NCBI RefSeq assembly: GCF_054482525.1
Contig: NZ_CM137006.1
Direction: 5' to 3' (one strand)
Length of the DNA: 64,000 nt
This document shows positions 53,033 to 59,317 of the stretch, in pieces. The notes below the pieces were generated by a model. It saw only the letters and a list, made by a program, of their open reading frames with translations. It did no database searches and was not told where the DNA came from. Made by a program: the position numbers and the translations under genes. How positions within the stretch are numbered: position 1 is the stretch's first letter; every line of letters begins with the position of its first letter.

Positions 53033-54230
53033 TGATCCTACCCGCGTAATGTGGACACGCTCCTAAGCGAGATTCTGGTTTTCAAACTGTTTCGGGCTGA
53101 GGCCGCCATAATCGCTGTGACGCCGCCAGCGATTGTAATCGCACTTAATCCGCCGTCCGCATGATTTCCCGGCTGATAAAGCGTTCTCCGTGGATACACT
53201 CGACTTTTAACGAGTGTAAGAAGCTTTCCGCACAGGCATTATCATAACAGCAACCTTTTGCGCTCATGCTGCCATGCAGATTATGTCGTTTCAGCAGAGC
53301 CTGATAATCCGCTGAGCAGTACTGCCCGCCACGGTCGGTGTGAATTCGCCGCCACAGCGCCATCTGCAGTGCATCACAGGCAAGTTCTGCCGTTATTTGC
53401 GAGGACACCAACTAGCCAATAATAGCACGCGACCACCAGTCTATAACCACGGCAAAGTATAACAAGCTTTCATCGATGCGAAGGTACGTGATGTCACCAG
53501 CCCACTTCTGGTCCGAGCCACTAGATCTGAAGTCCTGCTTCAGCAGATTCTCCGGCACTGGCTGGTCGTGAGCACAGTAGATTAACGGGCTGAACAGACG
53601 TGAGGTTTTTGCCCGCAGGCCCTGACGACGCGAACTGTTGCTATCGTTTTGATGTTGTATTCCGGCGGCTCGTCTGCAAGACGAGCCGCACCATAACGCT
53701 GTTTTGCCTCAACGAATACCTTACAGACAGCTTCATTGAAGACGCACCGGAACTGTTGCCGATGGCTCAGTTGGGGACGACGCAGACACCAGGTATACCA
53801 GCAGCTGTGCGCCACGCACAGCACCCGACACATAGCTTTGATACTGAACTCAACCTGATATTTTTCGATAAAGATATACTTCATTTCAGGCGCTACGCGA
53901 AGTATGTCGCGCCCTTTTGGAGAATAGCCAACTCATTATCCCGCTCAGCCAGTTGACGTTTGAGGCAGGCAATCTCCGCTGCTTGTGCGCTCTCTCTCAG
54001 AGGATATTGTCTGGTGCAGTTGTTTGTAGAGCTGGGAATCGTAAAGGCTGAGTTCACGGGCGGTAGTGGCCACACCGAGACGTTCGGCCAACTTAAGGGC
54101 TTCTTCACGAAATTCAGGCGTGTGTTGTTTGCGTGACTTTTGTTGATTGATGCTGATTTTGTCATGTGAGCTACCTCTGATTGAGAGTTTACTCGCTTAG
54201 TCCCGTGTCCACTATTGGTGGGTAGGATCA
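53033..54230 (-). mobile_element. Degraded IS3-family insertion sequence (IS3-like) with frameshifted orfA/orfB
   Basis: Terminal inverted repeats TGATCCTACCCGCGTAATGTGGAC (left) and TGATCCTACCCACCAATAGTGGAC (right, reverse complement); minus-strand ORF fragments match IS3 InsE (…[23 protein letters not shown]) and InsF (MKYIFIEK..., ...[14 protein letters not shown]...CCYDNA...), split by frameshifts; no target-site duplication. Confidence 0.8.
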
Positions 54231-54579
54231 TTATTGATCAAAGATCAAGATGTGCAAAAATTCCCAAGTAAAGCCTTATCTGAACCTTCCGTTTTGTTAG
54301 CACATCTGACATTATTATTCAGTCAAATCCCTTCAGTTGATTGAGTTCAAAGGCGGTAGCTATGCTGATTTGCATTACTGTAAAACTTTTAAAGCAGAGG
54401 TTTATATAGAATTGCTCTGTTGAATAAATTAGTAGGTTCACATGGATTTTGAGTTCACCAAGCATGACAACTTGCGTTCTTCAAGCGATCCTGAGAAGCC
54501 TATTATATTAGTGTACAAGATGCCTCACGTGGCACCACTGAATTTTACATTAGACTCTATCCATTAAAACGATAAAATT

Positions 54580-56313
54580 ATGTACATAGCAAAAATTAAA
54601 TTTACAAATTTCAAATCATTCAAAGAGATGTCTTTTGAGTGCAATGATAAATTCAACATAATTGTTGGTGAAAATAATATTGGTAAAAGCACATTATTTG
54701 AGGGGGTAAGTTTATGGAAATATGCTTATGACAACCTTATTCAAGAAAAAAACAAAAACAAATTCTACAAAGCTTCAACTAACTACTACATTACCTATTC
54801 TACACTCGATCAAATAAGACTTGTTGACGATATTGATATTTTTAACGACCCAAAGAATAGCTCCGCATCAATATGCATTACAATTAAAGATGAACAAAAT
54901 GAATTTGATTTAGAGATTAGATTTGAAAAGCCAGGGATTAAAAATTCATACTTACGGATATTTAATAGCAATGGTTCTGATAATGACACACAGTTTTCAA
55001 ACTTTGAACGATTCTCAAACTATATAAAAGAAAAGGATTGCACTCTAAAAGATGCCATTTACATTTACCAAACAAGACCAATATCAACTATTTTTAGAGA
55101 TGAGCCATTTTACAATAATGCGCAGATAGAGAAAAAAATAAATATTGGAAAGTCACATGATGTCTTAAGGAATAAAATATTAAAAACCGAAAATACTCAA
55201 GCCACAAGGGTTGCACAAAAATTTGAAAATCTTGAGATTCGCCTACAAAAAGTCCTTGGTGAAAACTATATCTTAAAATTTAAGAATAGAAATCGAATCG
55301 ATGATGAGTATGTTAAAATAACTGCAACAAAGGAAAACGGGAAAGAATTGGAAATATCACTTATGGGTAGTGGTTTTTTGCAAGTCTTAGAGATATTTTC
55401 AACAATTGAGTATATGGAAAAGAATTCAACCGGTATTAACCTCATTCTTATCGATGAGCCTGATTCACATATCCACTCAAATTTACAAGCAAATTTAATT
55501 GACGAACTAAAGCAACAAACAGCATGTCAAATTTTTGTCATAACACATAATGACAGACTAACATCAAAAGCTAATGAAGGTGAGCTTTTTTATCTAAATC
55601 AGATAGTTAAGGATCTTGGTTTATTGTCTCACCTTGAAATATCTGATTATTCAAAAGTTAAAGATGGTCTAGCTAATGTACTAACAGCTATAAATGATGG
55701 AGATGAAACACCCATTGTTATAACTGAAGGAAAAACGGACCAGAAAATTTTAACAACTGCTTGGGAAAAGCTAAACCCAGGAACTCCTATGCCTTTTAAA
55801 ATAATTTCATCCGGCATTCAAATTGAAGAGGAAAAAAGAACTGGGTGCGCAGAGGCAGTTAGAAGATCTTTAGAATACATTTCAACATTAACTGATAGAA
55901 CAATTATCGGTTTATTTGATAATGATCGGGAGGGAAATGAGCAGTTCAAAGGATTAAATCGTTCTATTTTTGAACCTCATGACCTGCAAAATAACTCCCG
56001 AAAACATCAGATAAAAAATATCTATGGGCTTATTCTTCCCGTTCCTGTGCATAGAGAACGTTTTGTACAAAACAATTCTTTAACGCAGCGTTACTTCGTA
56101 ATTGAACAATATTTCCAAGATGAAATATTACTACAGCATAACATGAAAGGTGAGTCAATATTAGGTACTGAGGTATTTTTTGTTAATGACTCAAGAAAGA
56201 ATGAGTTTTCAGAGTCAACCAATGACCTTCCGGTAGAATGCTTTGGGGATTTTAGTATTTTATTCGATAAAATTTCCGATTTATTGGCTAACAATAGACC
56301 AGAAAACACTTGA
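54580..56313 (+). CDS. OLD-family protein: N-terminal ABC-type ATPase fused to a C-terminal TOPRIM nuclease-like domain (P2 Old / Gabija GajA / PARIS-like); candidate anti-phage defense protein
   Basis: 577 aa; Walker A GENNIGKST (aa 30-38), Walker B LILIDEPD (aa 288-295), H-loop ITHND; TOPRIM-like ITEGKTD (E383) and FDNDREG (D447, D449); strongly AT-rich codon usage. Confidence 0.7.
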   Translation: MYIAKIKFTNFKSFKEMSFECNDKFNIIVGENNIGKSTLFEGVSLWKYAYDNLIQEKNKNKFYKASTNYYITYSTLDQIRLVDDIDIFNDPKNSSASICITIKDEQNEFDLEIRFEKPGIKNSYLRIFNSNGSDNDTQFSNFERFSNYIKEKDCTLKDAIYIYQTRPISTIFRDEPFYNNAQIEKKINIGKSHDVLRNKILKTENTQATRVAQKFENLEIRLQKVLGENYILKFKNRNRIDDEYVKITATKENGKELEISLMGSGFLQVLEIFSTIEYMEKNSTGINLILIDEPDSHIHSNLQANLIDELKQQTACQIFVITHNDRLTSKANEGELFYLNQIVKDLGLLSHLEISDYSKVKDGLANVLTAINDGDETPIVITEGKTDQKILTTAWEKLNPGTPMPFKIISSGIQIEEEKRTGCAEAVRRSLEYISTLTDRTIIGLFDNDREGNEQFKGLNRSIFEPHDLQNNSRKHQIKNIYGLILPVPVHRERFVQNNSLTQRYFVIEQYFQDEILLQHNMKGESILGTEVFFVNDSRKNEFSESTNDLPVECFGDFSILFDKISDLLANNRPENT

Positions 56314-57088
56314 TACTGTACTGCATTTTCCATATCGAGCTAAAACGGACCATTCGCTTTTAAAGTGATTACGGCATACGGGACAGATTTTCCTTAAAGC
56401 AAACGTCTCCTTCACGCCCTGAGACATTCGACATTAAGTAAGAACGGGGGTGCGCCTCGAGTGCCAGCAAATATTTTGCTTCGTCGTAGCGGGTTCTGGT
56501 CATCCAGCAGCTGTAAATGATCCTTATCCATTTATACGCCAGAGCCCAAATGGCTGATTGATGCGATTTTCCTTTTCTTCGCAGCTCTTACTAATAAAGT
56601 CTGGCCCAGAATGATGAGTTAATCGTCTTTGCAGCCCATTCCACGAATGTCTGTCGGACGAGCTCCGCACATTGCCAACATCAGTGTACCCAAGATTTCT
56701 GGCCGCTTTGTTCTGTCACCGGAAAAATACCTGCGTAGTTTTGAATTTCTTCAGCGCAGTTTAACTGGTCACGGTTACTTGAAGAAAGAAACTGACCACT
56801 GCGCTCGTCGTTCGGAAGTGCCAGGGCTATCGGTGGATATTAAGGGAAACCTGACAGCCGGAGGTAATCAGGGTTATTAATGCCGTCAGTGTGGGCCCCG
56901 CTACCAGTGAAACACTAATGTATTGATTAAGTTTCATATTCTTCCTTAATGAAAATAAGCATGTTTTCTTTTGCTAAATCAGTCGTCGTTGGCGATGAAA
57001 CCGGCTCACACATCACGCGATTGTTAAATGAAAAAGCCCCTATTGCGTGAGCAACAGGGGCTATATTTATTTTGTGTCTATAGAGGCA

Positions 57089-57499
57089 TCAGTAACCAGT
57101 TTTAACCTTGTACATCAATAGTGTTTTACTGCCCCGGACAATTTTCACATACAGGGCATTATCTTTCGTGCCTCGCACAAAACCGGCCTGCACATCGCCC
57201 TTACAGTCACCACCGTCGTAAGGAATATTGACACCTGTCTGACGCACCAGATCAATAACCCCGAAGCTTAAGTCCTCACAGGCCGGGCCCGGCAGGTCCT
57301 GAATCAGGGCAAATTTATGGTCGTCGCTGACACCGGTCAGTGAGCACATGGAGGTATTGATGTCGTTTCCCTGGCACCAGTACTCCTGACCGGGATTATC
57401 TTTATCCATCAGACTTGCCGGAAGCTGAGCGGCACCGGCACTGAAGGCGGCAAGTGACAGAATGAGGGCGGGTACAGCAGAGGTCATTATTTTCAGCAT
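57089..57499 (-). CDS. Secreted 4-Cys protein of unknown function (island-associated)
   Basis: Signal peptide MLKIMTSAVPALILSLAAFSAGAA; motif W-C-x9-C...C...C. Confidence 0.6.
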   Translation of the reverse strand: MLKIMTSAVPALILSLAAFSAGAAQLPASLMDKDNPGQEYWCQGNDINTSMCSLTGVSDDHKFALIQDLPGPACEDLSFGVIDLVRQTGVNIPYDGGDCKGDVQAGFVRGTKDNALYVKIVRGSKTLLMYKVKTGY

Positions 57500-57565
57500 G
57501 GTTTTCTTCCTGAATTAATCCAGCCCGCTGTCGGGCAAAATGAGGGAGGTTGGTATCGGGTATTA

Positions 57566-58003
57566 TCAGAAGCGCCGGTAGCGAAACAGCTCTTTGCCCT
57601 GGTAAAGTGCCACCAGGTCGTCATATTCCGGCTTCTTCTGGTTGGGCTTAAAGGTCACTACCGTGCCCGGACGGCACAGATCTTTTACGGTGAGACCGAA
57701 TTTCCTATCCGGAGTAATGGTGAATCCCTTCGACACATCGTTGTGCATGATAGTTATCCAGCCCCACAGGCCGCCTTCGCAGTCCTTAAAGGGTGCTGAA
57801 CGAACTGTTACCATCCCACCCAGGCGGTCAACAGACATGGCTTCACATTTTCCGGTAACCTGTCGATGCGCATCACACCAGAAAATATTCCCGTTGTTGT
57901 CATTGACGACTGCAGGTAGCGTTCGGTTATAAGGCTGAGCCTGAGCGCCCACACAGAGCAGAAGGCTGCCGGTAATACCCAGTACTTTAATCAGTGTTTT
58001 CAT
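57566..58003 (-). CDS. Secreted 4-Cys protein, paralog of the 57089-57499 gene
   Basis: Start at MKTLIKVLGITGSLLLCVGAQA; same W-C-x9-C...C...C spacing. Confidence 0.55.
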   Translation of the reverse strand: MKTLIKVLGITGSLLLCVGAQAQPYNRTLPAVVNDNNGNIFWCDAHRQVTGKCEAMSVDRLGGMVTVRSAPFKDCEGGLWGWITIMHNDVSKGFTITPDRKFGLTVKDLCRPGTVVTFKPNQKKPEYDDLVALYQGKELFRYRRF

Positions 58004-58044
58004 TACGTTGGTCCTTAACAGAGAAAGAATCAGGTAGCAGTCAT

Positions 58045-58581
58045 TCAGGCCCAGACGGTCAGGCCCAGCATCAAAAGCCATACCCAGAAGTAAGCCGGTT
58101 TCTGACCGAGAGTTTTCGCCCGCCGCCACAAATAGAACGGCACCAGCCAGGCCAGTTTGCCGAACGTGGTAGTGTCCACTCCGGCCTTACGAAGGCGTCG
58201 TTCATCGAGATACCCCAGAGCGATATTGAGCAGCAGCGTGATAAACCAGTACTGCCCACCCGAGACGGCATCATATGCCTCGTCAAATGACATCCCGCTC
58301 AATCCTGCAGTCCACAACTCCAGCGCGTAGCCAATGAAGGGAGCAAATGCAAGCGTCCACACAACGCCACCCGGAATGCGGTTCCCCGTCAGCGCTGGCG
58401 GTGTGGTGCTGTGGAGCAGCGCCGAAGCCAGCGGGGTGGCGGAGACCGGTTGCCAGTCCGGCATGCCCTGTCGCCACACCAGCGTGGCAGCGGTGAGTTC
58501 ACCGCGCTTAATCAGGTTAGTGATGTCGTCTTCGGTCACATTGTCGTGACGTATGCCATTTTTCTCGTAATGCCAGGTCAT
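58045..58581 (-). CDS. Membrane protein with N-terminal GYF-like (DUF4339-like) domain
   Basis: WHYEKNG...ATLVWRQGMPDWQPV then 3-4 hydrophobic helices. Confidence 0.5.
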   Translation of the reverse strand: MTWHYEKNGIRHDNVTEDDITNLIKRGELTAATLVWRQGMPDWQPVSATPLASALLHSTTPPALTGNRIPGGVVWTLAFAPFIGYALELWTAGLSGMSFDEAYDAVSGGQYWFITLLLNIALGYLDERRLRKAGVDTTTFGKLAWLVPFYLWRRAKTLGQKPAYFWVWLLMLGLTVWA

Positions 58582-58606
58582 TGTTTTTCCTTCTTAACAG
58601 AGGTAA

Positions 58607-59317
58607 TTAAATCAGTGTATTGCCATGCTCCTCCTCAGAGGGCCCATGAGACAGGACTTCGCGAATACAGCTGAAGTGCGGAAGAGCCCGAATAAAGCCC
58701 GCCTGTGTGGTTAACTGGCTGAGACGTTTTCGCGGGGTAAAAGTGGTGTTCAGGACTGTCACCGCATGGATGGTCGCCAGAGGGTGCACAGTGATATGCC
58801 CGTTAAGTTCACCGGTGAGGTACCAGCAGCCGTCGAGTGATATCAGGCGGTACGGAGCCAGCCCGTCACAGCGCTCTCCCTCGGCCAGCAGCAGTACCCG
58901 CTGGCAGGCGGTAATGGCACTGACGAGACGGTAGAACACCAGTGAGATGGTCGGTGACACAGACTGTGGCGGCTGCCATACCAGACACGGCATCCCTCCC
59001 GCAGTGAGCAACATGCCCGCCAGACGCCGGTCCAGCCCCGGAAAAATATCGGCCAGTCCGGCCCGGTGTGCGAAGGTCAGCGCATCAAGCTCCCCCTGTA
59101 CGCCCCCACCGGTGCTGCGCAGGCGGCATTGCCCCCGTCGATACTCAAGGTCGAGGTACATCAGCCGTTCGCGAAAATCCCGTCGCAGGGTACGGACTGA
59201 CACACCAAACTCTGCAGCCAGCCGCGCCATGTTCAGCGTTTCACCGGCAACCAGGCGGCTGATTATCAGTGACAGCCTGACAGCCAGCCGGTCATGACGG
59301 CGATCTGCCTGTGTCAT
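58607..59317 (-). CDS. YfjR-like HTH transcriptional regulator (DeoR-like)
   Basis: N-terminal HTH LNMARLAAEFGVSVRTLRRDF; position relative to the yfjP/yfjQ-like genes. Confidence 0.6.
   Translation of the reverse strand: MTQADRRHDRLAVRLSLIISRLVAGETLNMARLAAEFGVSVRTLRRDFRERLMYLDLEYRRGQCRLRSTGGGVQGELDALTFAHRAGLADIFPGLDRRLAGMLLTAGGMPCLVWQPPQSVSPTISLVFYRLVSAITACQRVLLLAEGERCDGLAPYRLISLDGCWYLTGELNGHITVHPLATIHAVTVLNTTFTPRKRLSQLTTQAGFIRALPHFSCIREVLSHGPSEEEHGNTLI

Follow-up and report, generated by a model that had tools for sequence, protein, structure and literature searches.

A 775-bp gap downstream of an OLD-like gene in an Escherichia coli genomic island: a probable composite of a spacer, a dead IS110-family fragment and a conserved non-coding backbone tail

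Introduction

An OLD-like ATPase gene on the plus strand of an E. coli genomic island is separated from the next gene, which is read from the minus strand (57089-57499), by a gap of 775 bases (56314-57088). What does this gap contain, and did the OLD-like gene lose anything there? The DNA in which we addressed this question is a stretch of 64,000 nucleotides from contig NZ_CM137006.1 of RefSeq assembly GCF_054482525.1, and this whole stretch is referred to below as the window. A first-pass annotation, made from the letters alone, had described the gap as a gene-less, degraded stretch that contained short broken ORFs and differed in composition from the OLD-like gene, and had proposed that it could be the remnant of a lost partner gene, or of an original occupant displaced when the OLD-like gene was acquired.

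Results

Extent, composition and annotation of the gap

There is no doubt about the descriptive part of this account. In the ORF list for both strands, the longest ORF of the gap encodes 83 aa, the 36-codon minus-strand ORF that had been given as an example of a short broken frame is present, and the G+C content is 0.452, vs 0.315 for the OLD-like gene. The absence of long ORFs is the chance expectation for non-coding DNA, and the unusual feature of the gap is its length of 775 bp, for which a composite origin accounts. We found that the window matched the E. coli SCU-102 chromosome with 100% identity, and that the RefSeq annotation of the same gap in that chromosome contains a truncated 'transposase' pseudogene and nothing else, corresponding to window positions 56453-56776 on the minus strand. 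The main component of the gap was thus already annotated. Our analysis indicates, with a probability of roughly 0.88, that the gap is an ordinary composite of a 91-bp spacer, a dead IS110-family fragment and the conserved non-coding tail of an island backbone (Table 1). The description of the gap as degraded therefore applies to about half of it, the transposase remnant at 56405-56777, and fails for 56778-57088, which is conserved non-coding backbone.

Table 1. Features of the gap and the OLD-like gene beside it, in window coordinates
Feature	Position	Strand	Basis
OLD-like ATPase gene, 577 aa	54580-56313	+	ORF; RefSeq WP_000275005 'ATP-dependent nuclease'
Spacer	56314-56404	none	91 bp, found in one lineage only
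IS110-family fragment, pseudogene	56405-56777	-	DNA alignments, tblastn, Pfam, RefSeq pseudogene
Conserved non-coding backbone end of a CP4-57-like island	56778-57088	-	NCTC9064 match, six-island alignment
36-codon ORF, most likely non-coding	56827-56937	-	Substitution pattern, variable lengths in relatives
Decayed second terminator hairpin	56850-56873	-	Island alignments, pair counts, folds
Predicted intrinsic terminator of the 136-aa gene	57035-57062	-	Terminator scan, folding, conservation in six islands

An IS110-family fragment and the spacer before it

Megablast and blastn searches revealed that the fragment shared 79-85% DNA identity over 373 bp with ISEsa2 and with other IS110-family elements, including those of Klebsiella plasmids, and that every one of these alignments ended sharply at 56777. 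The extent of ISEsa2 was set by the 1517 bp that are common to two copies in different contexts (S43 and NCTC9104), and within these 1517 bp the gene for a 412-aa transposase has 243 nt on its 5' side and 35 nt on its 3' side. The fragment represents the last quarter of such an element, namely the right non-coding end and the C-terminal part of the transposase. In addition, the right terminus at window position 56405 (GTC..CTTCACGCCCTGAGACATTCGACA; GTC..CTTCACGCC) is the terminus of two independent ISEsa2 copies. Because the homology begins exactly at this terminus, the insertion junction beside the OLD-like gene is original.

In tblastn comparisons, residues 295-404 of the 412 residues of the ISEsa2 transposase were matched in a single frame with 78% amino acid identity; this frame is interrupted by three stops in 110 codons, and the region of the transposase stop codon has been lost through a 13-nt deletion. 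When the translated fragment was searched against Pfam with the stops masked, a partial Transposase_20 domain was found (PF02371, model positions 27-82 of 87, E = 3.7e-6). The intact ISEsa2 protein possesses both a DEDD_Tnp_IS110 domain (PF01548) at residues 11-165 and Transposase_20 at residues 275-359, and no counterpart of the former, the N-terminal RuvC-like catalytic domain, was present in the window. No intact transposase ORF exists in the fragment, as judged from the stops, the deleted stop-codon region and the RefSeq pseudogene flag. The fragment thus resembles ISEsa2 and related IS110-group elements of Enterobacteriaceae in its DNA and amino acid identity, its right terminus and its Transposase_20 domain, but differs from them in that it retains the last quarter only, without the DEDD domain and without the left end that holds the bridge RNA region. 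It is a relic and not a functional element, being immobile and encoding nothing functional. The proposal that the gap holds a displaced original occupant is answered by the same result, since the remnant is that of an IS110-family transposase and not of a displaced cargo gene.

In elements of the IS110 group, the left end is long and encodes the bridge RNA, and the right end is short (Durrant et al., PMC11208160). ISEsa2 shows this layout, and its long non-coding left end, the bridge RNA site of the group, is absent from the window, where homology stops inside the gene at 56777; therefore, no bridge RNA is expected in the fragment. An orphan bridge RNA within the fragment was considered and rejected on these grounds, given the long left end of ISEsa2, its 35-nt right end and the loss of the former here. 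An Rfam scan of intact ISEsa2 for a bridge RNA family returned chance-level matches only.

The spacer runs from the stop codon of the OLD-like gene to the right end of the IS fragment. It folds no better than shuffled sequences (z = +0.67), and searches found no match to it outside the lineage except for one identity of 17 nt. This exact match (ACCATTCGCTTTTAAAG) lies at 56349-56365 and corresponds to DNA that lies beyond the right end of the NCTC9104 copy of ISEsa2, at a distance of about 40 nt (2501-2517 there). It may reflect a shared target context, and it is absent beside two other ISEsa2 copies.

The island setting and the cargo slot

The OLD-like gene (577 aa, 31.5% G+C) is a cargo gene of the island and occupies a variable slot between two conserved blocks of a CP4-57-like island. 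On one side of the slot are genes for a GTPase, a DUF932 protein, a DeoR/WYL-like regulator, a DUF4339 protein and two small secreted proteins, and on the other side are an IS3 pseudogene and genes for RadC, a DUF987 protein, a YeeU-type antitoxin and a CbtA-type toxin. At the same slot, NCTC9064 carries a YiiX-like hydrolase gene and a hypothetical gene, K-12 carries ars pseudogenes and yfjW, and metagenomic relatives carry genes for DUF6602, DUF5677 and MTES_1575-like proteins. Upstream of the OLD-like gene is the IS3-family transposase pseudogene (53063-54165, minus strand), which is broken by a frameshift and an internal stop. With the IS110 fragment downstream, the OLD-like gene is thus bracketed by IS debris.

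The closest well-known relative of this arrangement is CP4-57 of K-12 (yfjQ-yfjR-ypjK-yfjS-yfjT ... yfjY/radC-ypjJ-yfjZ-ypjF). Both islands share the order of backbone families on the two sides, and both have the same terminator hairpin and following ~60 nt at the boundary between backbone and cargo. However, the window contains an extra terminator and a segment of ~190 nt; where K-12 has ars pseudogenes and yfjW as cargo, it has an OLD-like gene with IS debris on its flanks, and no relationship to yfjS and yfjT was detectable for the two genes before the boundary. These two small genes (136 aa and 145 aa; 57089-58003) occupy the positions that yfjT and yfjS have in K-12 CP4-57. The 136-aa product has a signal-peptide-like N-terminus, shows no similarity to K-12 YfjT and matched no NCBIfam family.

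The backbone tail and its terminators

The part of the gap nearest to the 136-aa gene showed 82-84% identity to the equivalent island position of NCTC9064 and could also be aligned with four further islands from public assemblies, giving an alignment of six islands. In addition, a partial match was found downstream of yfjT in K-12 CP4-57, in 0H26 and in the second island of NCTC9104. Read along the minus strand, the tail consists of a strong terminator directly after the 136-aa gene, a conserved segment of ~190 nt, and a second hairpin with a T-run. The first-pass annotation had named a conserved non-coding region as the counter-case to its own reading, and 56778-57088, in which its quoted ORF lies, proved to be such a region.

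In the terminator scan, the first terminator (57062-57035) consisted of a 12-bp stem followed by UUUUU. Its hairpin folds better than shuffled sequences on both strands (minus, z = -4.8; plus, z = -4.6), a U-rich stretch also follows when it is read on the plus strand, and it is conserved in six islands. It is the predicted terminator of the convergent 136-aa gene and, judging from its sequence, may also stop transcripts of the OLD-like gene.

The second hairpin is intact in eight related islands. When its pairs were counted over nine islands, 91% of the cells held standard pairs, vs 24-52% in slid controls, and two pairs showed compensatory changes. In K-12 CP4-57, 0H26 and the second NCTC9104 island, this hairpin and the ~60 nt after it stand directly downstream of yfjT. 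In the window, two of its pairs are mismatched, its T-run was lost in a deletion of 12-13 nt and its fold does not surpass that of shuffled sequences, which together indicate that the second terminator has decayed here. Between the two predicted terminators, the degree of conservation equals that of the flanking gene, which could mean that the region has a function.

The junction at 56777/56778

Backbone homology starts at 56775-56784, immediately beside the point at which all IS110 alignments end. In five other islands, the conserved sequence runs ~45 nt past the position at which the window switches to IS sequence (…CAGGTAAATGTATCCGCTTCTGGTTATAAAGTCTGC) and then gives way to the cargo of each island, so that the last ~45 nt of the backbone tail are missing in the window. 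Because the IS breaks off within its gene and the backbone ends early at the same position, we consider the junction to be a deletion scar. Something was probably deleted at this point. The 83-aa plus-strand ORF (56629-56880) crosses the junction and is a spurious chimera of IS antisense and backbone sequence; a 77-aa version of it has been predicted by a gene caller on a metagenomic contig (8068-8301 there).

Does the tail encode a small protein or a small RNA?

The 36-codon ORF in the tail could in principle be a real gene of the backbone for a small membrane protein or lipoprotein, as a good Shine-Dalgarno sequence (AAGGAAG) stands 5 nt before its ATG and is conserved in six islands, its product is hydrophobic and signal-peptide-like, and versions of 36 aa occur in two other islands as well. 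The pattern of substitutions among the six islands does not fit this reading: the numbers of variable sites at the three codon positions are 14/9/6, vs a coding pattern of 33/20/71 in the adjacent gene of 132-136 aa, and in the first 30 codons the window and NCTC9064 differ at 13 nucleotides, which produce nine non-synonymous and two synonymous codon changes. Moreover, conservation is no lower in the 87 nt before the ATG, with 22 variable sites, than in the ORF, with 29, and the region of the start codon is missing from K-12-type islands. The frame crosses the second hairpin and the T-run, and because the length of the T-run varies, the product is 36, 57, 65 or 68 aa long in different islands, with unrelated tails. 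A HMMER search of 1.84 billion representative proteins with the 68-aa version returned six matches, five of which are similar short ORFs (36-68 aa), while the sixth is a weak match with 42% identity to a repetitive protein of 172 aa; all four short-ORF matches that were traced to their contigs came from this same island position. No NCBIfam family was found for the product of the 36-codon ORF. A real gene here is thus quite improbable, and the ORF is most likely non-coding.

It is somewhat less improbable, but still unlikely, that the ~190 nt between the terminators (about 56850-57035, minus strand) are an unannotated small RNA of CP4-57-like islands that was disabled in the window by the loss of the U-tract. 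Across six islands that differ in cargo, the segment shows ~85-90% conservation; it ends in a hairpin and a U-run in eight of nine islands, where wobble and compensatory changes keep the hairpin, and for the NCTC9064 version the fold is better than that of shuffled sequences (z = -2.2). However, the copy in the window shows no such signal (z = +0.79); no Rfam family matched, a permissive scan of 54000-59000 included, and no sigma-70-like promoter was found on the minus strand in the window. In K-12-type islands, the 190-nt segment is lacking and the hairpin follows yfjT directly, as would be expected of a plain operon terminator, and tandem terminators after an operon are the simpler reading.

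The OLD-like gene and the question of a lost partner

The OLD-like gene was found in one of 5426 complete E. coli genomes. Pfam recognised an ABC-type ATPase in residues 1-333 of its product and nothing else, and comparison with NCBIfam gave weak ATPase-level matches that fell far short of the curated cut-offs. For the C-terminal ~240 residues (~340-577), searches of Pfam and of PDB sequences returned nothing, a Toprim domain included. Toprim-like acidic motifs (ITEGKTD and FDNDREG) can be read from the sequence, and the source annotation (JGI) of one homologue is a ribonuclease M5-like endonuclease. As Pfam and PDB sequences gave no Toprim, the label 'OLD-like' is founded on the ATPase, the motifs read from the sequence and the source annotations.

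Homologues of 555-577 aa are numerous, and the closest relatives, with 54-86% amino acid identity, come from metagenomes, Aeromonas, Vibrio, Acinetobacter and marine bacteria. We examined the neighbours of these genes. The Aeromonas homologue has an acetyltransferase gene or small ORFs on one side and the thiH operon on the other, the Acinetobacter homologue adjoins an FMN reductase gene and the ileS-lspA region, and the V. cholerae homologue adjoins an integron-type integrase gene downstream of rplT; these homologues, at 54-64% identity, thus lie beside unrelated housekeeping or cassette genes, none of them conserved. The 86%-identical metagenomic homologue is followed by three unrelated ORFs, and tblastx of its flank against the gap gave no match. 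When the flanks of the homologues were compared with this stretch by blastn and tblastx, homology was confined to the gene itself (54550-56289).

Could the gap be the remnant of a lost partner gene, such as a helicase like GajB, as in two-gene systems of the Gabija type? Gabija has its partner gene immediately downstream (PMC10568477), and PADLOC did report weak matches of the OLD-like protein to GajA models, along with matches to the NsnB, AriAB and PtuA models. However, all of these scores were far below the curated cut-offs and the family level, and the best matches covered the ATPase only. The sole protein similarity in the gap is to the IS110 transposase; the homologues stand alone without a conserved neighbour, and the gap holds no trace of the downstream genes of the 86%-identical homologue. 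[quoted passage not shown] We therefore regard a lost partner, which had been the first explanation put forward for this gap, as very improbable: the remnant is that of an IS110 transposase, and the homologues of the OLD-like protein are single genes. A single-gene pattern is the defining feature of Class 1 OLD nucleases (PMC10568477; PMC12392090), whose sizes range from 500 to 600 aa (PMC12392090). The OLD-like gene resembles Class 1 members such as P2 Old and Vc OLD in being a single gene of 577 codons with an N-terminal ABC-type ATPase and homologues that stand alone, but its product differs from them in having no Pfam or PDB sequence match for Toprim.

Discussion

The composition of the gap can be explained by a short series of events. 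First, an IS110-family element related to ISEsa2 would have come to lie 91 bp past the end of the OLD-like gene, oriented so that it read towards that gene. Subsequently, the 5' three quarters of the element, including its left end and the catalytic DEDD domain, would have been removed by a deletion that also took any DNA on the far side of the element and the last 45 nt or so of the backbone. What was left of the element, 373 bp, would then have decayed further, acquiring three stop codons and a 13-nt deletion. The remaining 311 bp are the usual non-coding end of the backbone operon. In this tail, the strong terminator of the convergent 136-aa gene probably also ends transcription of the OLD-like gene, and the second, downstream terminator has lost its U-tract here. 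What the parts are, where they end, that they are truncated and that the small ORF has a non-coding character is shown by the results above. That one deletion made the junction, that the events took place in this order and that the terminators are used in this way is what we infer; the single-deletion history has this status because no pre-deletion allele was found, all three of the contigs checked that encode an identical OLD-like protein having the identical 775 bp.

The conserved tail of ~330 nt, made up of a terminator, the ~190-nt segment with its SD-ATG, a second hairpin with covarying pairs and a conserved end of ~100 nt, always sits exactly where the variable cargo begins, and the copy in the window is damaged. 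It is conceivable, though we think it improbable, that this tail is more than a set of operon terminators, being either a small RNA or a fixed boundary for the exchange of cargo genes, which are often defence-like. On the preferred reading of the gap as an ordinary composite, the practical consequences are simple. Gene callers predict short ORFs in the gap, of 36 aa on the minus strand and of 77-83 aa on the plus strand, and none of these deserves annotation as a gene; the IS110 fragment should be regarded as lacking the parts needed for bridge-RNA-guided recombination. Variable slots of genomic islands commonly contain debris of this kind, and the result in itself matters little.

The diversity of genes found at the slot equivalent to window positions 54200-56777, right after the conserved tail, suggests that it is a hotspot for the exchange of cargo, some of it possibly related to defence. 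The OLD-like gene in this slot shows no sign of a lost partner. With that false lead removed, it can be treated as a single-gene candidate for defence cargo.
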